Positions 6,901 to 50,020 of a DNA stretch of 64,000 nt are shown piece by piece; position 1 is the first letter of the stretch; each line of letters starts with the position of its first letter. Below the pieces are notes generated by a model, which was given only the letters and a program-made list of their open reading frames with translations, was not told where the DNA came from and did not search any database. A program made the position numbers and the translations under genes. This stretch comes from Iphione sp. A-MEVVRFRX5. Taxonomy: Eukaryota. Location: NCBI GenBank assembly GCA_976226885.1, contig OZ320318.1, positions 32,984,001 to 33,048,000 on the forward strand. The letters run 5' to 3'.

Positions 6901-7484
6901 TTGTCAATTTTCAAAACGGCTAAGGCTGAGCCCGATTCTAGGGGTGGTATCTAGACTGTCTGAACACACTTACGAGATTACGCATCAGCCACTGACAATT
7001 CCAAGACTACGATTGGATACAAATGTGGATGGGTCATCAAGCATGTGGTGCTGGGCTGATACTGAGAACGTGAGTGCAGTGTCAGTAGGTTGTACTTGGA
7101 CACTGATGGCACTCGGAGGTAATCCTTATGTAATGAAAGCTGTAATGACCGGGGAATTTACCGTAACGCCAATCCGGTGGTGGTGGAGATTTCAAAGGGC
7201 GTTCCATGAAGATAGTAACTAAGAAAAGAAATAGATATTTTTTCAGAGATCGGTTTTCTTGAATCTTTTGTTAATATTGTACACAATAATCTATGAGCTC
7301 GTGATCTTATAGAAGAGGGCAAGTTGTACAACCCATGTGAGACGGTTCGTTAACAGGGTATGGAAACCAATGTAGTAGTGGTGCTGTACACACAACAGCC
7401 GCAGCTATCGTAGAAGTAATGAGGACTGCGGGGAAAACGCTGACTCTAAGGGTGATTATGAGGCTTAAATTATCCGATGATAAT

Positions 7485-7593
7485 TATGTGGAATATAAGG
7501 CATTTATATGAGTATATGTCGCAAGAGGCAATGTATTGTTGTTTCATAGCAACTGTGATGTCGCTGTTCCTAACGATGTACACTCTCTGTTTA
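7485..7593 (+). repeat. Split direct repeat A1 of element 1 (109 bp)
   Basis: Identical by eye to 11419-11527 (TATGTGGAATATAAGGC...CACTCTCTGTTTA). Confidence 0.95.
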
Positions 7594-7632
7594 ACTTTTG
7601 AGGAGTGACGACGTGCCTTACTGATCAGCACG

Positions 7633-8451
7633 ATGGAGAAATTTTGCAAGAAGTGTAATGTGTCTCATATCTCTCCAGTGGGCAAGAAATGCAGGAGACC
7701 TACCCAGGAGGTGATTGACATTGCTGGGAAAAATGTTGAAGATGATCCAGGCGACGTTATGATTGAGAAGCGATTCCAGAAGATTGAGACAATGCTCGAG
7801 GCATTGGTCACCAGCAAGCCCTCGAGCCAATTGAAGCCGGTGAAAGTGACCAGTGAATCTTCTTCTAGTGGTGATGAATCTTCTTCAGACTCGGACTCTG
7901 AGGTGCAGAAGAAGAAGAAAAAGAAGAGAGGTAAGAAGAAGTTCTCCATTTCGCGGTACGTGAAAGGTGAGAAAGTGGATACGTATGAAGACCTGGTGGT
8001 GGGGTCTGTCGGGTTGTTGAAGAAGTTGATGGCCGACGGTGAGGATGTGAAGGGTTATATCGACCATTTGGCTTTTCTGGCAGACAGGGCGTCAACAAGA
8101 ATCTATACCAGTGCTTCACTGATCGAGTATGACAGCGAGATGCATAAGAAGGCTAAGGAGGAAGGCATGAAGGCCTTCTGTTACGGTGACACAGTCGTCG
8201 TTCATCGCTGCCTTAGCTTGGATGCCACGGTGGATGTGGCCAAAGCTAAGGAATCCAAGAAGAGGCAGAAAAGAGCGAAGGGAGTGTGTTTCAAGTTTAA
8301 TAACTCTTTGTGTGATGATCAGAATTGCAGGTTTAAGCATGTGTGTGAGACATGCCTGAAGGCGGGACATAGAGCATCAGAGTGCTTCACGGGCAAGTCA
8401 TCCGGTGGAGATACAGCCACGAAAGCGAAAGCATCAGTTAAAAAGGACTGA
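7633..8451 (+). CDS. Gag-like ORF1 (272 aa)
   Basis: N-terminal CKKCxxxHxxxxGxxC motif, Ser/Asp-rich and poly-Lys tracts, and a C-terminal CFKFNNSLCDDQNCRFKHVCETCLKAGHRASEC double zinc knuckle (CCCH + CCHC) typical of Ngaro-type Gag. Confidence 0.9.
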   Translation: MEKFCKKCNVSHISPVGKKCRRPTQEVIDIAGKNVEDDPGDVMIEKRFQKIETMLEALVTSKPSSQLKPVKVTSESSSSGDESSSDSDSEVQKKKKKKRGKKKFSISRYVKGEKVDTYEDLVVGSVGLLKKLMADGEDVKGYIDHLAFLADRASTRIYTSASLIEYDSEMHKKAKEEGMKAFCYGDTVVVHRCLSLDATVDVAKAKESKKRQKRAKGVCFKFNNSLCDDQNCRFKHVCETCLKAGHRASECFTGKSSGGDTATKAKASVKKD

Positions 8452-10530
8452 CTAGAGGCCTACATTGATCGATCATCGGAGGAATCCGACACTTGTGAGT
8501 CGTGCATTAATGATTTGCCACCTAGCATGAATTACTGGTCTTTCAAGGAGACCGATTGTGTTGATCGTTTGAATAACGGAATCGAAGGCGTTGCCAAGGG
8601 TAACGCTGGGAATGACGTTGTGGACGGTGGTTACGTCACTGATTGTGATTTGACGTCTTTTAAGTCCCGTGACGCATTGAGCATTTTTGTGTTGAAGGAA
8701 CAGGACAAAGACGGACATCGGTTGACTGTGAGTAGATACAATGGCAATTCATCAATTAACATTTATGAAAGTTGTATTTCAGGTGAATGTTGTTGTACTC
8801 ATTACATCGGTGGTGTTTTAAGTCCCTTGAAGATGTGTAGGTGCTTCGTGTACCTGTCCCGCTCGGACCTGAGTGATGGTCTTGTTGTCGAATTGTGGAG
8901 AGGGATAAGCGAAGGATTTAATATCGTTGATGAAAACTGTAACACTGAGTATTATTGTAGTAATTACAAGTCAATTTTGTGTGAAGGTTTTAAAGAACAG
9001 ATGGATCGTAAAATTGAGGCTGAATTGGAAGCTGGCTTGATTAGTATCACTGTTGAAAAACCTAAATGTGTCAATGCCTTGGGGGGGGTGCCTAAGAGTA
9101 ACGGGGATTTACGTCCAATTACAGACTGCTCGATGCCCCCAGGAAAAGCGATTAATAATTTTATGAATGACACGTGTAAAGAGTTCAGCTTCAAGTCAGT
9201 AGATACTGTCTGTAATATGCTACATGAAGGGGAGTGGTTAGCCATGTGTGATATCAAGAGCGCATATCGCTCAGTACTGGTTCGTCCAGAACATAGGGAA
9301 TTTCAGGGTTTCAGTTGGATGAGTACTGGAGAAAACCCAAAATTTTATGTAAATAATTCCCTATGTTTTGGACTTAAGTGTGCTCCATATATATTTAATA
9401 ATATTTCGGAGCTAGTGGTGTCTGAGTTTCGCTACAGATGTAATGGTAGGATAGTGAACTATCTCGACGATTTTATTGTAATAGGTTCGACAGAAGAAGA
9501 ATGCAGTGTTCTTCAGAGTATCCTTGTTGATGTTATCAGTGAAATAGGGTTTGAAGTATCGATACAGAAATGCACGTATGCTAGCCAAAAATGTAAATTT
9601 CTAGGCATAATGATTGACACTTCAAAGATGGAGCTTTCACTACCTGAAGAAAAAGTAGTAATGGTGAAAGAAAAAATCGAGTTGGCCCTCAAAAAAGATA
9701 AATTGTCAAAAAGGGAGATTGAAAGTTTAGCAGGATCCCTTTCGCATTGTGCGACTGTTGTAAAGGGGGGCCATACATACACACGCAGCTTGTATGACTT
9801 TTTAAAGAATATTAAAAACAATTGTAAAAAGGTAACTTTGAATGATGAGGTTAAAGGTGATCTGAGCTGGTGGTTGAATTTGATGGACGTGTTTAATGGG
9901 AAAAGGAGGATCATTAAGACATCAAGTGTGGAATGTGTTATGACAACTGATTCTTCGATGGACGGCTTCGGTGGATGGCTCAAGAACGACTGGTTTTATG
10001 GGAAATGGAAGGACCAAGAGTGGTGTATTGACTCGTGTGATCACCATTATGAGACTGCTCCTATGTGTGATATTTATGAGGAACACATTAAAGTGTTCGA
10101 GCTTTGGGCAGTACTGATTGGTTTGAAACGCTGGAAAGAATTCTTGGCCAATAAGATGGCCTTAATAAGAGTAGATAACACATCAGTTATGTACATGCTG
10201 AGGTCAGGGAGGAGCCAGAACAGAACTTGTATGCGTTGGCTAAGAGAAATTTTCTGGTGCTGTGTGATTAAAAATATTGCTTTCAAAGTAGAATATATCA
10301 GTACTTGTGATAATTACATAGCCGATGTATTCTCTAGGGCGGTAGAGCCAAAGATGTTGGAAAGAGTAATGAATGATCTATGGTCTCGTTCTGCATGTTG
10401 TAGCCATGTCTTATCTTCCATTTTCAGAGGGTCTGAAAGAACTGAGGCGGAAGATGAAATCCTTGAAGGAGGACGCTTTGGCGGTCAACACGAAAAAGAC
10501 AAGGAACCACCAGCTACAGAATTATTGTGA
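8452..10530 (+). CDS. Reverse transcriptase / RNase H ORF2 (frame open from the gag stop; first in-frame ATG at 8527)
   Basis: RT motifs CDIKSAYR, LCFGLKCAP, YLDDF and KFLGIMID. RNase H motifs TTDSS, HIKVFEL, VDN and NYIADVFSR. Confidence 0.95.
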   Translation, partial: LEAYIDRSSEESDTCESCINDLPPSMNYWSFKETDCVDRLNNGIEGVAKGNAGNDVVDGGYVTDCDLTSFKSRDALSIFVLKEQDKDGHRLTVSRYNGNSSINIYESCISGECCCTHYIGGVLSPLKMCRCFVYLSRSDLSDGLVVELWRGISEGFNIVDENCNTEYYCSNYKSILCEGFKEQMDRKIEAELEAGLISITVEKPKCVNALGGVPKSNGDLRPITDCSMPPGKAINNFMNDTCKEFSFKSVDTVCNMLHEGEWLAMCDIKSAYRSVLVRPEHREFQGFSWMSTGENPKFYVNNSLCFGLKCAPYIFNNISELVVSEFRYRCNGRIVNYLDDFIVIGSTEEECSVLQSILVDVISEIGFEVSIQKCTYASQKCKFLGIMIDTSKMELSLPEEKVVMVKEKIELALKKDKLSKREIESLAGSLSHCATVVKGGHTYTRSLYDFLKNIKNNCKKVTLNDEVKGDLSWWLNLMDVFNGKRRIIKTSSVECVMTTDSSMDGFGGWLKNDWFYGKWKDQEWCIDSCDHHYETAPMCDIYEEHIKVFELWAVLIGLKRWKEFLANKMALIRVDNTSVMYMLRSGRSQNRTCMRWLREIFWCCVIKNIAFKVEYISTCDNYIADVFSRAVEPKMLERVMNDLWSRSACCSHVLSSIFRGSERTEAEDEILEGGRFGGQHEKDKEPPATELL

Positions 10531-11365
10531 CTTTTGTGAAGAGTTTGGGTTAGAGTGTTTTCCGTGCTCAAACACTCAGGCTTGCATCTATGTCACTTAC
10601 CTTAGTAGAAGCCTTTGTTTTAGTTCTATCAAGAACTATTTGTCTGGGCTGTGTTATTGGAGTCGAGTCAGAGGGGTTGAACCACCTGATTATAATGATT
10701 TTAACCTCTCTCAAGTGCTACTTGGGGTCAAGAGATCGACTGACAGGAGGGCTGTCCAAGCTCATGCCTTTTCTTTAAACGATATGTATCAAATTTTTGA
10801 TAAGTTGGATCTCAGTGTACTATCTGACCAGATGTTTTGGCTGGCGTGCTGTTTGGCTTTCCGTTGCCTACTTAGGAAAGAGTGTCTTACCTCAGATGAG
10901 GGTTTAAAGTGGAGTGATATCGAATTTACAGACTTTGGTATGATAGTTCATGTGTTACATGGAAAGTGTATTATTTCTGCTAGGGACGTGTATTCAGTCC
11001 CTGTGTTTTACTGCAACTCATATAAAATGTGTGTTGTGACGTGGATGAAGATTTGGCGTTCAAAGAGTTTTGTATATGATGATCAATTGATTTTCTCTTA
11101 TACCCGTAAAGGATTTCTCAAAAAACTAACTTATGGTGATTTTATGTTGAAATTGAAACAAGTATGTGATTTTATCAAAGATGATGTAAGAGTTTCTTCA
11201 CATGGTTTTCGTAGAGGGGGTACAACATTTTTGGCTTCCAGGGGTGTTGATATTAATGTCATCAAGGATAGAGGGAACTGGAAGTCTTGGTGTATTCTTC
11301 AATATATCGATCTGCACTTTGACCAGTTGTCTAAAGCTGAACATGATATTTCTTCCTTTCTTTAG
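10373..11365 (+). CDS. Tyrosine recombinase ORF3, overlapping the end of RNase H in another frame
   Basis: Catalytic set FRCLLRK (R), HGK (K), SHGFRRGG (HxxR) and GNWKSWCILQY (W...Y). N-terminal SAM-like region YVTYLS...SSIKNYLSGL. Confidence 0.95.
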   Translation: MIYGLVLHVVAMSYLPFSEGLKELRRKMKSLKEDALAVNTKKTRNHQLQNYCDFCEEFGLECFPCSNTQACIYVTYLSRSLCFSSIKNYLSGLCYWSRVRGVEPPDYNDFNLSQVLLGVKRSTDRRAVQAHAFSLNDMYQIFDKLDLSVLSDQMFWLACCLAFRCLLRKECLTSDEGLKWSDIEFTDFGMIVHVLHGKCIISARDVYSVPVFYCNSYKMCVVTWMKIWRSKSFVYDDQLIFSYTRKGFLKKLTYGDFMLKLKQVCDFIKDDVRVSSHGFRRGGTTFLASRGVDINVIKDRGNWKSWCILQYIDLHFDQLSKAEHDISSFL

Positions 11366-11374
11366 CTGGGTTTG

Positions 11375-11421
11375 GGCCTGAGTATACTCCCACTTCCTCG
11401 TTGTGTCCTTATTAGACATAT
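11375..11421 (+). repeat. Split direct repeat B1 of element 1 (47 bp)
   Basis: Identical to 11553-11599 (GGCCTGAGTATACTCCC...TTAGACATAT). Confidence 0.95.
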
Positions 11422-11527
11422 GTGGAATATAAGGCATTTATATGAGTATATGTCGCAAGAGGCAATGTATTGTTGTTTCATAGCAACTGTGATGTCGCTG
11501 TTCCTAACGATGTACACTCTCTGTTTA
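11419..11527 (+). repeat. Split direct repeat A2 of element 1
   Basis: Identical to A1 and overlaps B1 by TAT. Confidence 0.95.
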
Positions 11528-11552
11528 CCTTTTTTTTCTTTTATCTAATAAA

Positions 11553-11599
11553 GGCCTGAGTATACTCCCACTTCCTCGTTGTGTCCTTATTAGACATAT
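11553..11599 (+). repeat. Split direct repeat B2 of element 1
   Basis: Identical to B1. Preceded by AATAAA (11547-11552) and followed by a degenerate (TAA)n tract. Confidence 0.95.
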
Positions 11600-12155
11600 A
11601 ATAATAATGTTTATAATAATAATGATAATAATATAATAATGAGGCTTAAATAATCTTAAATAATTTTCACCTCCTTGTAAGGCATCAGGCAGTATTCAAC
11701 ATGATTAAACATGCAAAACGTTAGATCCTCTCTGGGTGTAAAGAACCATTTAACAAAAGTCAGTGCATGACATTTAGGCAAACGTGTTTATGGATAAAGT
11801 TGAATGCCTATTTGTGACGGCATCAAGCTCCAACCAAATTTTTTAATCTGACAGGTTCAGTTCAGAAGGAAATACATGTACATACGACCACCTAAGGAAC
11901 CAGGCTTAGACAGTTGCTATTGGGGTTGGTCGCTTTTCTAAATGAAAAGGTAGTTGAGTATGTATTATGTATGTATATGCTGTATGCAGGGGGTCTTTCT
12001 CCCTCTCTCTCTATGATTTGAACATTTATTATCATAGGAAATAACAAGAAATATGAATAGCACCACACAGTTGATTAACAATTGCCAAGAAATATTGCAG
12101 ATATATAGTGCACATTAACACAATGAACATGGACATGTAAGTTTAGTTAAGGTTA

Positions 12156-26789: not shown

Positions 26790-29560
26790 TGACTGAGACA
26801 AAACTAGGATACATTAATGCACGTAGTGGCTGGAAAAATATAGATCAGATTAGGGACTTGTTGTATCAACAAAACTGGGAGATTTTATTCATATCTTAAA
26901 CATGGTTACATCGTGATATACCTGACCAAATGATGGAAATTATGGGTTACAATATGTATAGGCTAGACCGTATCCATACAAAGAGAATCAGAGGTGGGGG
27001 CTTGCTAGTCTACTTCAGGAACTTACTGAAGCTTGAGATCCAACATGATGAAAATCAAAGCAATGACAACTTGGTGATCGAGGTGATCTTGCTAAAGTTA
27101 TGGTGCATTAAGTGCTATGTGCATATTGTAGGCTGTTACAGATCACCAAGAGGTGATTAAGGTGGTTTGATTATGCATTTGAAGCGGAAGTTGCTTTCTG
27201 TGGAAGGGTTGAATTGTAGGAAATATGTGATCATGGGGGATCTTAATGTCAACCTCTCTAATAAGAAAAGCGTACATTATGGGATGCTGGAGGAGTTTAT
27301 CTTAGATAGTGGAGGATATCAATTGATAAGGACCCCCACGAGGATAACAATAAATAGTGTGACTATACCTGACTTAATTATCACAAACATTGGCGAGATA
27401 ATGACAGTAGGTGTTGTGCAGGCATCCTTCAGTGACCATGAAGCCATTACAACTACCCTACCAGGTCCCAAAATGCAGGGTGTAGAATGGCGATGGGTGT
27501 GGGACTCTAAACATTTTGATCAGACCAATTACCTAAACAAAGTGCAGACTGAGATAATGTGGATAATGAACGAAAATATGGGAGTTAACATTAGATGGGA
27601 AACAGCTAAAACTATAATTGCTGGTTTATATGATAATATGAAGCCTCTTGTCTGAAGGAGGCTAAAAATAAAAAGGACACCATGGATGAATGGTAATGTC
27701 TATAGCAAGATAAGGGCCAGGGAAAAGTTATACCATGATGCCAAGCAGTCAAATCATCCAGACGATTGGATTCTATTTCGAATAAAGCAGGAGCAAGTGT
27801 GTAAATTGATCAGGAGGGCTAAGGGAGATTACATAGCAAACCAAGCTAGGGAGTTGCATATGAAAACCAGTTTTGGTTAGAATACCAAGAGTTGTGCTGA
27901 AATACAACTGAAAAGCGAGGGATGCCAAATTATGGCAGAACAGGTACCCGATGCAATAAATGATTATTTTACTAGCATAGGGAGGAGGATTAATATTCAA
28001 TTAGGAGGAGAGCCGGAACCTGCTTGTAGTAGGATAGGGGTGCTTAGGGATGATAAATTAGAGGCCTTTCAGGTAAATACTGTGGAGGTGATGAAGCTAT
28101 TAAAAACCTTCAAAAATCACAAGGCCTCTAAAATAGGTGCAGTCCCACCAAAATTGTAAAGGAAATAGTTAAGAACAATATCCACTTCTTCACTGATTTA
28201 CTGAACCAGAGCTTCCTACAGTGCGAAGTTCCACAAGACTGGAAGAGTGCGAGTGTCACTCCCCTCTACAAAGGAGGGAAGAAAGACACAGTATCAAATT
28301 ACAGGCCGATTAGTCTATTGAGCATGCTAGCTAAATTACAGGAACAAATTGTCCACCAAATGTTCTATACACATTTGGAGGATAACAATATTTTGTCAGA
28401 GAATCAATTTGGCTTTAGACTGGGTCAGTCTACTGACCAGGCAATCTTCAAATTAATGAACAGGGTGCATGCAGGGCTGAATGAAGGAAAGTTTGTGGTT
28501 GCCATATTTATAGACTTTATGAAAGCATTTGACTCTGTAGACCATGCTATATATCTGGAAAGGATTAAGAACACAGGATTAGTTGATGCTAAACTGAAAT
28601 GGATAGTGAACTACCTAACAGGGCGCAGACAATGGGTGACCTGTAATGGGAAATGTTCAAAGTGGAGGCCCATCACCTGTGGAGTACCCCAGGGGTCAGT
28701 GCTAGGCCCCCTTTTCTTCCTAGTGTTTATAAACAGCCTAGCAGAGGTTAGCCAAGAAGCGATGACCATACTCTATGCAGATGATGTTGTGCTGGTTGTT
28801 GAAGGTGAGACCATTAATGAAACCAGGAGCAGGGTGAGGAGAGTATTGGATAGGGTTGGGGCATGGTCCACAGAGTCAAAGATTCAAATTAATACAAAGA
28901 AATCATATTGCATTAGCTTTACCTATGTTAGGGTGGTGGCGTGGGATGTAGGTGATAAGGTTAAAACTATGGGGTTTGATTTAGCAGTGACTAACTCTAC
29001 AAAATACCTGGGTGTAGTTATTGATAGGCGTCTCACCATGACTAAAAACCGAAAAATAATTGCTAAAAGATTGGCTGGACAACTGTGGTATGAGAAAAAT
29101 AAGGCATCTGATGACCCAGAGGGAAGCAGTCTTACTGGTAAAAGCAATGATCCTCCCAGTGAGTGAATATGCTATCTTTGTCAATACTCTTGATAATGCA
29201 AGACCACTGCAGAACATATGTAGGCTGCACAAGTGTCTCATCAATTTGGCCTTTGGCTATTGGAAAATAAACCTAGAGCAGGCAAAAAAACAGTTTACTT
29301 AGCTAAGAGATTTAAAACTGCTGCACTTTGGCTATGATCTATCCTCAAACAGAGAGGGTACCAGACATACTAGGAGCCACCTTAAGAAGGTGATCATCGT
29401 GCAATGTCCTAGGAAAGAAAGGTTTAAGAGTTGTGGGCATTATAGAAGCAGTAAACTATGGGATGCATTGCCGACAGACCTGACAAATAAAGATAAAAGA
29501 AATTTTAAACTGGGTTTAAAGTATAGATATAGGAGGTTCAGGGATTTGTTGAAAATTGCC
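26790..29560 (+). mobile_element. Degenerate CR1/L2-like LINE (APE endonuclease + RT)
   Basis: EN motifs GYINARS, YRLDR..RGGGLLVY, MGDLN, TPTRIT...PDLIITN and SDHEAI. RT motifs NYRPISL, QFGFR, DFMKAFDSVDH, GVPQGSVLGP, YADD and KYLGVVID. Many stops and frameshifts. Confidence 0.9.
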
Positions 29561-30183
29561 TAGATATCTGTCCCACACAATGGATGCATAATGCCACCTA
29601 CAAACGTGCACACAGGGTAAGGGGCACTGCCTCTACCCAGAGTGCAAAATGCAAGGTGCTCGTACAACAAAGATATTTTATTTTACTGCAAATAAAGGCT
29701 TATTATGGGAAAGGAACCCAGATATTGAGTAGTATCAAGACACAGACTATGACTAATGATCTGCCACTCATTAATTCGTGAATCACTCATCATTTCATTG
29801 TCATTATCATTCTCACATGGTCAGTCATTTATTGATCTTACCCTAATGCCATAACTAAGTTGGTGTAATGTGAGCATGCAAAGTAGGGTGAGATAGAGCC
29901 TATTGTTCATGTTTTAAGTGAGGTTTGATACTGGATTATATACTAAATGTATTGTGTCATCCAGTGGAAATGAAAAGTTTAAAAAAAAAGCCCCAAGCAT
30001 CGTGAGTTATTGACACAATATCTCCTCACACCCTCAGCCCCCTACCAACAGAAACCCTGAAATTCTCTGTGATCAGGATTAACCAAGACCGACCAGTAAG
30101 CATTGCAGATGTCACATGTACTCATTCATTCTCCACCTATGATGGAATTGCTAACATCATCAACTGACTTGTAACTAAAATCC

Positions 30184-30720
30184 CTATGGGTCACCTCCAT
30201 GAAATTTTACCTTACTGTCCTTCACATAAGACCTGATAGAGTATTTCTTCGCCTCTTCCCTTGATTTTTGCCTCTTCCTCCTCGAGCTGGAGTCATTGTT
30301 GGACACATCTGAATCCTTGTTGTCCTCCAAATTTGAGTTGCTTCTGATGTCCTCCTTGGTTGATTCACTAGGAGTCTTCTCCGTCTTGCTGGACACCAGG
30401 GCTTCTAACATCGTCTCTAGGTGTTCAAACCTACTCTTGCCCATTTCTTCATGAGAATTAACAGTAGAATTTGTTTTCTCACCCGCAAAAAACTTCAGCA
30501 GGAGTCTTCGTACAATTTTTCCCCATTGGAGATTTGTGCTTAATGTCACACTTCTTGCAGTATTTCTCCATTTTGGGAACACAAGAGTAAAATGTCTTCA
30601 CTCCATAAGAAATTAAATGAGTGTGTTGTTATAGAAGGCGGTGGTCATGGACTCGAAATATGTTGCTTGGTTACACAAATAACAATGGTGCTATTATGAC
30701 ATATATCTGATATAATGAAT
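30184..30720 (-). mobile_element. 5' part of Ngaro-type element 2 (A1 repeat + truncated gag, ATG at 30571)
   Basis: MEKYCKKCDIKHKSPMGKNC and RFEHLETMLEALVSSK are homologous to Gag of element 1. 30677-30709 is identical (33 nt) to 23863-23895 in the A2 repeat. Confidence 0.8.
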
Positions 30721-30731
30721 TATATAAATAT

Positions 30732-32330
30732 ATATTGATTGAACAACTGACACACACAAGTTGGGGGTTGGACACAATTTGGGGCTTTATTCAAGAAAAA
30801 ATAAAATTTTTCAAAGTAAGTGTCGTTGATACCCAAAATGTTCCATGGTATACATATGTACGTCATCAGGTAACCAACTACAATGCTAGGTTGGCTAGGT
30901 GATTGAGATGCAGCTCTGACGTTGCCCATGCCAATATACATATAAATCCCTTATATGGCATATTGAATGAACAACTGACACACACAAATTGGGGGTTAGA
31001 CACAATTTGAGGCCAACCCCAAAGACGAAGAAAAAACAAGATCTTCCTTATACAAGTGGTCAGTAGAAGGTTTTAAATAAGCGTAGACTGCATTACTCTT
31101 CCAATTACCCCTTGACTTGATGGAATAGATAGGTACCCCTAGACTTGCCATGTGTGAAGCACCACCTCTCCTTAATGAGTGTGAAGTAATCCTACCAGCT
31201 ATGCCAGCTTCATTGCTATAGAACTTTAGCTTAGCCTGAAAATCTTCATACTCAAAAAGGCAAAACGAACCAAAACTCCTGTAACTCAACACTGGGTCCG
31301 ACGGTGACATCTTGAACAAGGTGAAAATTACCCTTAACCAATTACAGAGACAGAATCTTTTATCCCCACAATTAGACACAACAACATCTTTAGGATTCTC
31401 ACCAAATTGATCTGTCTTAGACTTCAAAACACGAATGATAACACCCTTCTCATTAAAAGTCACATCTCCTCTGCAAAGACCACCTCTACCTGTATACTGC
31501 CTTTTCCGCAATAGACACCTAAAACCCAACAATAAGGCGCACCAGAAAAGGTAATCATAAACCCTTGAAAACTTCAAAACATTAAAAATCTGCACCAAAT
31601 CCTTACTAGTCACTCCCTTGGCCACTAGGGACGGACCTTTGAAGCATCTCTTCAAACCATTAACCATCCATTTGACATTATAATCATGAATGTCAGGACA
31701 CAACAATCCCCTTTTCTTGTGCTCATAGATAACTCCACTCAAAAAATTTACAACTGAACTTGGAGACATAACAAAAGACAAGTAGGCACAATACCTCCTA
31801 ACTGAGTCTGACTACAAGGATACTTAGTCAACCCATATTTCCTACAAAAACCATAATACACCTCCTCCTGTCTCCTCCTTGTTTTCTGGGTGTTCTCAGA
31901 AAAAGCTGACTCCTTCGAATCCAGCATCCTCGGATCCAGCCTCCGAGTTTCCTCTGCAACCAATAAGAAAGGCCTTACAGCAGGCTGTCCTAACCCAGAG
32001 ATTCCATCTATCATCATTGCAAGACAAATCATTGAGAGGCAATCAGCTACCACGTTATCCTTGGTGCTGACATATTCACAAACTAGATGAATATTAAATA
32101 CCATACATGTCCAAAAAATCTCTTTCAACCATGCCATTCATACTTTATTCACACTCCTACCGGTTTTCAACATAAACATGACTTGAGTATTATCCACTTA
32201 GAAAAGGACTGTACTATGCTTCAAAATAGTCTCCCATCTCTTCAGTGCGACAACGACTGGCCATAACTCCAAAACATTAATATTCTTTTCACCCATAGGA
32301 ATACAAGGAACCTTCTCGTAATGATATAAA
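30732..32330 (-). mobile_element. 5'-truncated Ngaro-type element 3 (RNase H remnant, YR, B1-A2-B2)
   Basis: RNase H remnant NINVLELWPVVVALKRW...VDNT. B repeats at 30960-31013 and 30732-30785. The intervening A starts TGCCATATAAGGGATTTATATG, similar to A of element 1. Confidence 0.85.
30996..31781 (-). CDS. Tyrosine recombinase of element 3 (N-terminus in another frame upstream)
   Basis: GFRCLLRK, SKTDQ, SHSLRRGG and RGNWKSNAVYAY give the full R-K-HxxR-W-Y set. Confidence 0.85.
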   Translation of the reverse strand: MSFVMSPSSVVNFLSGVIYEHKKRGLLCPDIHDYNVKWMVNGLKRCFKGPSLVAKGVTSKDLVQIFNVLKFSRVYDYLFWCALLLGFRCLLRKRQYTGRGGLCRGDVTFNEKGVIIRVLKSKTDQFGENPKDVVVSNCGDKRFCLCNWLRVIFTLFKMSPSDPVLSYRSFGSFCLFEYEDFQAKLKFYSNEAGIAGRITSHSLRRGGASHMASLGVPIYSIKSRGNWKSNAVYAYLKPSTDHLYKEDLVFSSSLGLASNCV

Positions 32331-48099: not shown

Positions 48100-50020
48100 C
48101 ATGTTTTGGGAGTTTATTCCAGAGCTGGTGACAGTGATATCTTATTGATTTGCTATATTTTTCCTTTCTTGGTCTATTAATGGGTAATTTGCCTTCTTGC
48201 AGAGAGCCGAGTGCACCCTTGTGTTGGTGGGTTTACAGCCATATCCATCCTTATTCTGAGTATTCCATCTTAACGATGTAGTCTTGAACAGCTTGCTCTA
48301 ACGTGTATCTTTTGTAACCGTAAGCAGTGTTAATAATATTTCGTTCAATTCTGCTACTGGTCTTGTTAAGACTGCCCTGATTTTCGTGAAGTATTTTAGT
48401 TTTCCATCAGTTTGTGCATGGTTGCTAGTTCCTAGTTGTTAGTTCATGACATTGTCAAGTTTTCATCAAGTATAATACCTAGATATTTAACCTCTGGTAC
48501 TACCTCAATCTTCCTCCCTCCGACCTCCACTGTCTTTTCAGGGATAAACTGCCTTCTTTTCGGGTAATTGAATACAAGACATTTTGTCTTTTCCTGATTT
48601 ATCGATATCTTCGAATTTGTAGACCACTACCGCTGCTCTGTTTTCTTTTAACTCCTACGGTGTTCTTCTCTGTATTACGATAGCCACATCGTTGGCATAC
48701 ATATGGGTTGTCCCCTTGGTAATTTTAGTAGGTAGGTTGTTAATAAAGATCTGGAAAAAGAGGGGTCCCAAAATTGAACCCTGGGGCAGCCCTTTTAGAA
48801 GTTTTACCATTACAAAATATGTACAGTTCCCTCCCTGTCAAATATCTAGTTATCCACCCGAGATTCTTACCCTTAATACCATATCCCTTAATTTTGTGTA
48901 GTAGAACTTCATGATCCACCGAATCAAACGCCTTTCTGTAGTTGACAAAGATGCCAGCCGCAAAAATGCCCTTGTTCAGTAGCACATGTATACTATCTAG
49001 TAGGCCGGATATGTCTGTCTCCATTGAATGCTGTTTTCTGAATCCGTGTTGACATTCGCTAAGTAGGTTCTTTGATAGTAGGAACTCGGAAATTTTGGTG
49101 TGCACTACCTTTTCGATGACTTTAGATAAGGTGTTCAGCAAGCTGATCGGTGTATAATTACCTATATTTTCCTTGCTGCCCCTTTCCATAGGGGGATAAC
49201 CTTTGCTAGCTTCCATTATTTTGGGATTATACCCATCTGGAAACTTTGATTCATCACCTTTACTTAAGTTGGGAGTGAACCTAACATAATATCTTTGACT
49301 AGTTGGGATTTCACCTATCTGTGAGGCCTTGGTAATGTTAAAACACTTAACTATCCTTTTTACATTCCCTGAGCATAGCAAGAAAGTCACACAACATTTC
49401 TCACGTAAATGTATGGCATTGATCCTGTTGTGTTTTATTATGAAATTCCAAGCTTATTTTTCTACCTATCTTTAAAAAGAAGGTATTTATATGTTCTGGT
49501 ACCTCACACGGTTGCACATCATCCCTAGGTGCCCTGACCCTTTGATACAATGAGTTTCTGCTTCTTATTTCCTTTAACACTGTGTCTGCCATCCATGGCT
49601 TAGGTCTACCTTTTAGTGTAATATTCTTTTCGGGATTATGCATATCATACAACCTTTTTAAGAAACATAAGTCCAACACAATGTCCACTCTTCCCACAAT
49701 TTCTACCTATATCCTCAACGCCCTTAATTGCATCCAGTATGAACGTACCTCTGTCCCGACCTGTTTTCTTGCATACAGACACCATCCTTCTAGTAGGTCC
49801 TATGCATTCTGTTGTCACCTCCGTGAAAATAGCTCTGCGATCACTAAACGGGCATCTATCACATTAACACATGCAATATGATCCTTTGAGTTGGTTATCA
49901 GTAAGTCAATGATGCTGCTTGAAGTATTTGTGATCCTTGTCAAATCCCTCACTAACTATATTATGAGCACATATCAGACACAAATTTAAACAAGATAATA
50001 ATACCTTAATAGATCCCATA
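48100..50020 (-). mobile_element. Degenerate CR1/L2-like LINE
   Basis: NYTPISLLNTLSKVIEK, QHGFR, KAFDSVDH, YAND (YADD-like), KPWM, and EN tail TSSSIIDLLITN. Confidence 0.85.

Follow-up and report, generated by a model that had tools for sequence, protein, structure and literature searches.

How does a retrotransposon obtain its reverse transcriptase (RT) when a stop codon in the same frame separates the coding region of this enzyme from gag? The question is raised by an element in a 64,000-nucleotide stretch (hereafter, the window) of contig OZ320318.1 (positions 32,984,001 to 33,048,000, forward strand) in the 1.18-Gb assembly GCA_976226885.1 of Iphione sp. A-MEVVRFRX5, which comprises 89 contigs. 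Its gag begins with the ATG at 7633 and ends after 272 codons with the TGA at 8449-8451; the same frame is open from 8452 to the TGA at 10528-10530, which gives 272+1+692 = 965 codons for gag, the stop and pol (RT and RNase H) together. The original prediction, made from the window alone, described this TGA, in AAG GAC TGA CTA GAG GCC, as the sole break of the frame, and the frame as open before its first ATG; the sequence is as described, and the first in-frame ATG (8527) is codon 26 after the stop. We believe that programmed UGA-CUA(G) readthrough between gag and RT/RNase H, as then proposed, is the best explanation for the clade of the window element, and a very probable one, as far as comparison of sequences can tell.

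Conservation of the gag/pol junction

The family was sampled as 101 elements, namely the window element and the 100 best others of 150 scored matches to the C-terminus of gag (1793 candidates). At the end of gag, TGA-CTA is found in 96 of them and TGA-CTG in one; of these 97 TGA-CT(A/G) junctions, 95 share the frame of the gag match, and upstream indels have shifted the other two. The next base is G in 87 of 96 elements; thus, of the CUAG context proposed initially, CUA is kept, while the final G is usual but not obligatory. A further 20 elements, absent from the gag list, were chosen by RT, which avoids selection on gag; they include 13 with TGA-CTA, one each with TGA-CTG, TGA-GTA and AGA-CTA, and four with no readable junction.

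The four exceptions among the 101 elements are two deletions (L046 and L111) and two single-base changes (L079, CGA; L057, TGT), and none of them has a sister at 85% identity or above within this set. A reading of L111 as TAT-TGA-CTA was rejected; it is a deletion with an out-of-frame match and was scored as lacking the junction. Residues invariant in intact copies are altered at 2.4% per codon over all 101 elements; therefore, two substituted stops match the expectation from decay (2.4). A sense codon at this position, which the original prediction named as contrary evidence, is thus rare (CGA in 1/101, TGT in 1/101, besides deletions in 2/101) and consistent with decay.

Gag and pol are both intact in 36 elements, with a median protein identity of 56% (50-71%) and an agreement at four-fold sites of 0.34; synonymous sites are near saturation. 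Two of the 151 conserved four- or six-fold columns are codon-invariant in this set: the leucine after the stop (CTA) and glycine 100 of gag (GGT). The remaining 31 conserved leucine columns give 0.22-0.65, versus the invariant CTA after the stop, and the codons downstream of CTA are highly variable. In pol, CTA accounts for 290 of 2478 leucine codons (12%). The stops at the end of pol in 46 intact frames are TGA (17), TAG (15) and TAA (14), followed by mixed bases. The comparison recommended at the outset, which asked if an in-frame TGA-CTA is kept while the flanking codons diverge, has therefore been made with a positive result: the UGA-CUA(G) context is conserved at the level of nucleotides. 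Judged by these comparisons, the TGA is no decay mutation; it is a kept feature of the family.

The region behind the stop keeps an open frame. In 96 copies, which were not chosen for an intact pol, the first 60 codons after the stop contain on average 0.30 in-frame stops, versus 3.8 in the +1 frame and 11.1 in the +2 frame, and 87 of the 96 contain none. In 86 of these copies the stop and the first conserved motif of pol share a frame; the motif is shifted in 6 and was not found in 4.

Alternative explanations

Of the alternatives considered, splicing that removes the stop survives best, although we regard it as unlikely. In this case pol would be made from an RNA in which the donor at gag codon 100, or a CAG/GT 47 nt upstream of the stop, is joined to CTAG at its AG, and CTGAC would act as the branch point. 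Both donors are in phase 1 and in frame with a cut after CTAG, the AG is present in 31 of the 36 intact elements, and the element already carries strong splice signals for its recombinase. The latter, judged against the textbook consensus, are a predicted donor at gag codon 100 (GT in 35/36 intact elements, within the codon-invariant Gly100 column) and a predicted acceptor at the recombinase start (present with an open frame behind it in 31/36, with a mean pyrimidine fraction of 0.69), which delimit a predicted intron of about 2.5 kb (7931-10427). Since both are in phase 1, splicing at 7930/10428 would place the recombinase in frame behind 99 residues of Gag. In two lists of 150 matches, inspected by eye only, no adjacent pair of gag N-terminus and recombinase was noticed that would represent a genomic copy without the predicted introns. 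The 15 nt before CTAG, however, are purine-rich (pyrimidine fraction 0.28 versus 0.69 at the recombinase acceptor), and a branch A at a distance of 4 nt leaves the spliceosome too little room before the AG. Further, the G is absent in 5 of the 36 intact elements and in 11 of the 18 members of a sister group that retains TGA-CT; TAA would be an equally good branch point, yet no in-frame element of the RT tree has it; and the CAAYYA that follows TAG in another lineage (see below) is left unexplained.

Some other donor-like motifs were noted. Forty-seven nucleotides upstream of the stop, at gag codon 258 (8404 in the window), most intact elements have CAG/GTGG (AG in 32/34), which the window copy lacks; an upstream readthrough element, a weak splice site and a protein constraint are its candidate roles. 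Phase-1 donor-like motifs also occur within pol at +338 and +1142 past the stop, in 23 and 27 of the 36 intact elements, respectively. Another motif is fixed in position: GTGAG or GTAAG begins exactly 43 nt past the stop in 71 of 96 elements, and TGTGAGT is found in 27 of the 36 intact elements though the next residue varies. When this donor is joined to the recombinase acceptor, a stop is formed in 25 of 31 elements, and hence it might give a Gag-only RNA. Decay triggered by a downstream junction has a limit of 50-55 nt; 43 nt is inside it, so such an RNA might be stable. A stable Gag-only RNA made in this way is speculation.

We consider slightly less plausible still an independent start of pol past the gag stop, be it reinitiation, leaky scanning or an internal promoter, with translation from the ATG at 8527 or a near-cognate codon. 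There are precedents: the Tca2 junction contains a minor promoter (PMC2194720; here and below, publications are cited for the parts consulted), in relatives of the window element with overlapping frames an ATG is found close to the gag stop (TAATG or ATGA in some of them), and codon 5 could serve as a start in one sister group of the in-frame type (12/15). In the window clade, the first ATG of 75 non-redundant elements lies anywhere from codon 3 to codon 182 after the stop (11 of them have it within 10 codons), and in 17 of 72 elements it is downstream of the conserved CxCx[HYF] motif. The most frequent ATG position is common to at most 16 of the 75 elements, and the most frequent position of a near-cognate start to at most 34. 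As the first ATGs are scattered and no position is common, pol has no shared start in this clade; the downstream frame is open and conserved and has no start of its own. The invariant TGA-CTA and the fixed frame would also be left unexplained.

A special recoding of UGA, either as selenocysteine or by A-to-I editing to UGG, is very improbable. It agrees with the large clade described below, where 115 of the 116 elements have UGA, but an Rfam search of 7300-11800, which included the selenocysteine insertion sequence (SECIS), gave no match at E<=5, no conserved duplex spanning the stop was found, and neither CUA nor the lineage with UAG-CAAYYA would be accounted for. The hairpin with a GNRA loop that was noticed near the stop in the window is present but not conserved: a stem of at least 4 pairs with such a loop at +16..+50 occurs in 2 of 96 elements, the window element and its 97% identical sister. 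This is no more than chance, and we rejected the hairpin as a stimulator of readthrough. Folding z-scores in 46 elements average about -1 at +30..+240 versus about -0.3 elsewhere, and for the best helix in common (+127..+144) pairing has a mean probability of 0.24; a weak distal RNA element downstream of the stop is possible.

Finally, one might take the element for a dead copy whose single gag-pol open reading frame (ORF) was interrupted when CpG decay turned CGA into TGA. This view agrees with CGA-CTA in the open frame of L079 but can practically be dismissed, as 97 of the 101 elements share the stop at an identity of about 56%, the single-base exceptions are as few as decay predicts and lack close sisters, and pol is fused to none of the 150 best gag relatives (out of 1896 at E<=0.001 in the 50% protein library), of which 138 of 140 stop within 45 residues past the zinc finger.

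Sister lineages and other hosts

The RT tree (FastTree, midpoint root, local supports) includes 148 non-redundant elements from the 178 whose RT stretch was uninterrupted, whose gag zinc finger was followed by a stop after at most 45 residues and whose frame relation was clear; these criteria excluded fused and broken copies, and other clades were brought in by searches with distant RTs. The large clade comprises 116 elements (support 0.987), all in frame, with TGA in 115 and TAG in one; the base next to TGA is C in 103 of the 115, and CTA or CTG follows in 94. In a separate group of 18 (support 0.994), 15 in-frame TAG-CAA elements are interleaved with 3 elements with overlapping frames. The former have CAA-YYA in 14 of 15 cases (33 of 34 before thinning), where the second codon encodes Leu, Ser or Pro.

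The 17 elements with overlapping frames provide an internal control. Their gag stops are TAG (8), TAA (6) and TGA (3), without preference for the next base, and mostly there is an ATG close to the gag stop. Candidate slippery heptamers were found in 1 of the 17, therefore -1 frameshifting is unsupported in this type. Stop-start junctions were observed here as TAATG at the gag stop (L206, L211, L216, L233, L210), ATGA (L215) and TAATCATG (L204, L207), a pattern associated with termination-reinitiation.

Outside this genome, 51 metagenome loci were sampled and classed only where both the gag end and pol were visible. Five distinct in-frame junctions all have TGA-C (L123, CTG; L127, CCA; L134/L136, CCT; L150, CCA; L151, CGG), three distinct types are overlapping (L125; L130/L139; L131-133/L135), and six frame-broken loci stand outside the classification. 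Three of four loci from a genome-contig collection are of the overlapping type. Relatives of pol in other assemblies have 36-47% identity. A search for longer proteins, which was a weak one, gave no fused Gag-Pol protein elsewhere, and no relative was found in viral contigs. Three loci (L334-L336) are YR (tyrosine recombinase) retrotransposons of eukaryotic type on contigs of bacterial metagenome-assembled genomes, probably host DNA binned together with symbionts.

Structure and classification of the element

The features of the element are given in Table 1. The pol product matches RVT_1 of Pfam (E 1e-21, passing the cut-off) and, weakly and under the cut-off, RT_RNaseH. No match to a methyltransferase domain at E<=0.1 follows RNase H in Pfam, and pol ends about 60 residues past the RNase H region. 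For the gag ORF Pfam gave no informative match. The translated recombinase ORF contains HGFRR (His-X-X-Arg) and a downstream Tyr, and its Phage_integrase match is under the cut-off.

The order A1-ORFs-B1-A2-B2 of split direct repeats is the layout of Ngaro (PMC8547959, PMC9210276), and both this order and the ORF order gag, RT/RNase H, YR are found in the window. Judged by its sequence, the element is a YR retrotransposon with split direct repeats, of Ngaro-like type. The original label of Ngaro type thus stands as regards the repeats, the ORF order and the lack of a methyltransferase; membership in Ngaro over PAT is assigned by structure, not by a tree with reference elements. PAT and VIPER have the same repeat layout, and for this reason the label depends only on the repeats and the absent methyltransferase.

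Elsewhere in the window, a second element of the same family, rearranged and broken, is located on the minus strand at about 30000-32300, with a recombinase frame at 30996-31811 and fragments of gag and pol, and there are two more RT fragments at 28132-29166 (+) and 48740-49453 (-).

Table 1. Features of the element in the window and members of two related lineages
Feature	Position or loci	Strand	Remarks
Split direct repeat A1	7485..7599	+	115 nt, 99% identity to 11419-11533
gag-like ORF	7633..8451	+	272 aa; C-terminal Cys/His zinc-finger-like motif; stop TGA; from the ORF listing
Predicted 5' splice donor AG/GTAAGA	7927..7936	+	gag codon 100; intron start 7931; phase 1
In-frame TGA, then CTAG	8449..8455	+	candidate readthrough signal; conservation across relatives
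pol ORF (RT + RNase H)	8452..10530	+	692 codons; gag frame; first ATG 8527; stop TGA 10528-10530
GNRA hairpin TCGGA-GGAA-TCCGA	8476..8489	+	small; probably incidental
Second donor-like motif T/GTGAGT	8494..8500	+	43 nt past the stop; position-fixed in the family
Tyrosine recombinase ORF	10373..11365	+	overlaps the pol 3' end in a different frame; PF00589 E 2e-5, under the curated cut-off
Predicted 3' splice acceptor	10410..10427	+	pyrimidine tract + CAG; phase 1; recombinase start
Split direct repeat B1	11375..11421	+	
Split direct repeat A2	11419..11533	+	
Split direct repeat B2	11553..11599	+	47 nt, 100% identity to B1
TAG-CAA-YYA lineage	L194, L219, L227, L234-L263, L294-L313		includes a young family with 16 or more copies, 92-95% identity
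TGA-NGG-TGT subgroup	L176-L179, L181, L185, L186, L190, L200-L202, L282, L283, L287, L292		ATG, GTG or TTG at codon 5

Discussion

We favour readthrough since the frame, the stop and the next codon are kept, the spacer is open and there is no conserved start; also, two known leaky contexts occupy the homologous junction, while the contexts are random where frames overlap. As the same leaky signal is kept in the family and a second one in a cousin family, readthrough by ribosomes is likely. For the most part, the signal appears to lie in the short stop context rather than in a conserved hairpin.

We presume that on a single full-length RNA ribosomes would pass the in-frame UGA-CUA(G) at a low rate, a near-cognate tRNA decoding UGA. 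Free Gag would be the main product, and a Gag-RT-RNase H fusion of 965 residues the minor one. If the measured UGA-CUAG cases are a guide, the rate could be a few percent or more. The fusion would co-assemble with Gag; YR elements are reported without a protease (PMC3783388), therefore it probably stays uncut. For the recombinase, we predict a separate, spliced RNA in which gag codon 100 is joined to it in frame.

Several observations weigh against this account. The flanks of the in-frame gag UGA of Candida Tca2 gave no readthrough in a yeast reporter; Tca2 pol is nonetheless made from gag-pol RNA (PMC2194720). A conserved 3' stem-loop adjoining the stop was not found in the family. CTAG also offers an in-phase AG to the gag donor, as stated above. 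Four of the 101 elements lack the stop, and two of these have open frames, of 962 codons in L046 (short deletion) and 999 codons in L079 (CGA-CTA); these could be insertions damaged by mutation or fused variants that are viable. In a sister subgroup of 15 the stop is retained (TGA in 14) and mostly followed by NGG-TGT; with an ATG or near-cognate codon at codon 5 in 12 of 15 it fits reinitiation equally; this subgroup may reinitiate, by a mechanism different from that of the window clade. Finally, nearly all elements are from a single genome.

For YR elements with split direct repeats as a whole, we are inclined to think, with less confidence than for the window clade, that readthrough is an old and widespread route to Gag-Pol, through UGA-CUA and UAG-CAAYYA, with reinitiation in a third lineage. 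If so, readthrough together with the Gag-N/recombinase splice would make a full expression plan for this order of retroelements, of which we found no description. Beyond frequent ORF overlap, the literature examined does not state how DIRS/Ngaro elements make RT and recombinase, and the family offers a testable answer. It also supplies, within one genome, a natural collection of over 100 diverged candidate leaky-stop contexts, with the overlap-type elements as controls. As for annotation, gene calls based on starts cut Pol short at arbitrary ATGs, and an in-frame stop at the gag/pol junction should not count as a sign of a dead copy.

Comparison with known systems

Full-text searches found no report of readthrough for DIRS/Ngaro elements, although subscription reviews, Repbase reports and supplements may mention in-frame stops. 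The consulted parts of PMC8547959, PMC9210276, PMC6681497, PMC7192593, PMC3783388, PMC3266345, PMC12440569 and PMC8226300 contain no statement on readthrough. This agrees with the original prediction, which was aware of no description of readthrough here and gave the ORFs as usually overlapping. The window element shares with the Ngaro superfamily (order DIRS) the repeat layout, the gene order and the absence of a methyltransferase domain. It differs in having gag and pol in one frame with a conserved candidate leaky stop, while the described ORFs overlap (PMC9210276, PMC8547959), all of them in Xenopus Ngaro (PMC9210276). In addition, no SGNH hydrolase ORF separates YR from the repeats.

Murine leukemia virus (MuLV) is a known case of readthrough from gag into pol, and in-frame stops are known in Tca2 and SIRE1 (PMC2194720). 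The likeness is one RNA on which an in-frame stop divides the structural from the enzyme genes; the difference is that these are retroviruses or long terminal repeat elements, and that MuLV has UAG, a purine spacer and a pseudoknot, while the stop in the window is UGA, without a conserved hairpin at +16..+50. CAR-YYA after UAG is the readthrough consensus of tobacco mosaic virus (PMC2194720, PMC4132726), a type of signal known mainly from plant viruses (PMC4132726, PMC2194720); it is matched by the sister lineage with TAG-CAA-YYA (14/15), not by the window element.

The closest likeness is to the UGA-CUA(G) signals of alphaviruses, AQP4, OPRL1, OPRK1 and MAPK10; UGA-CUAG is a measured readthrough context, and in that of MAPK10 CUA is invariant and G occurs in 68 of 73 cases (PMC4132726). 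While the window case, known from sequence, differs in belonging to a retrotransposon, in that readthrough would add 692 residues, and in having no conserved adjoining 3' stem-loop, it has the same stop and the same following bases, with CUA invariant and G usual, as in MAPK10.

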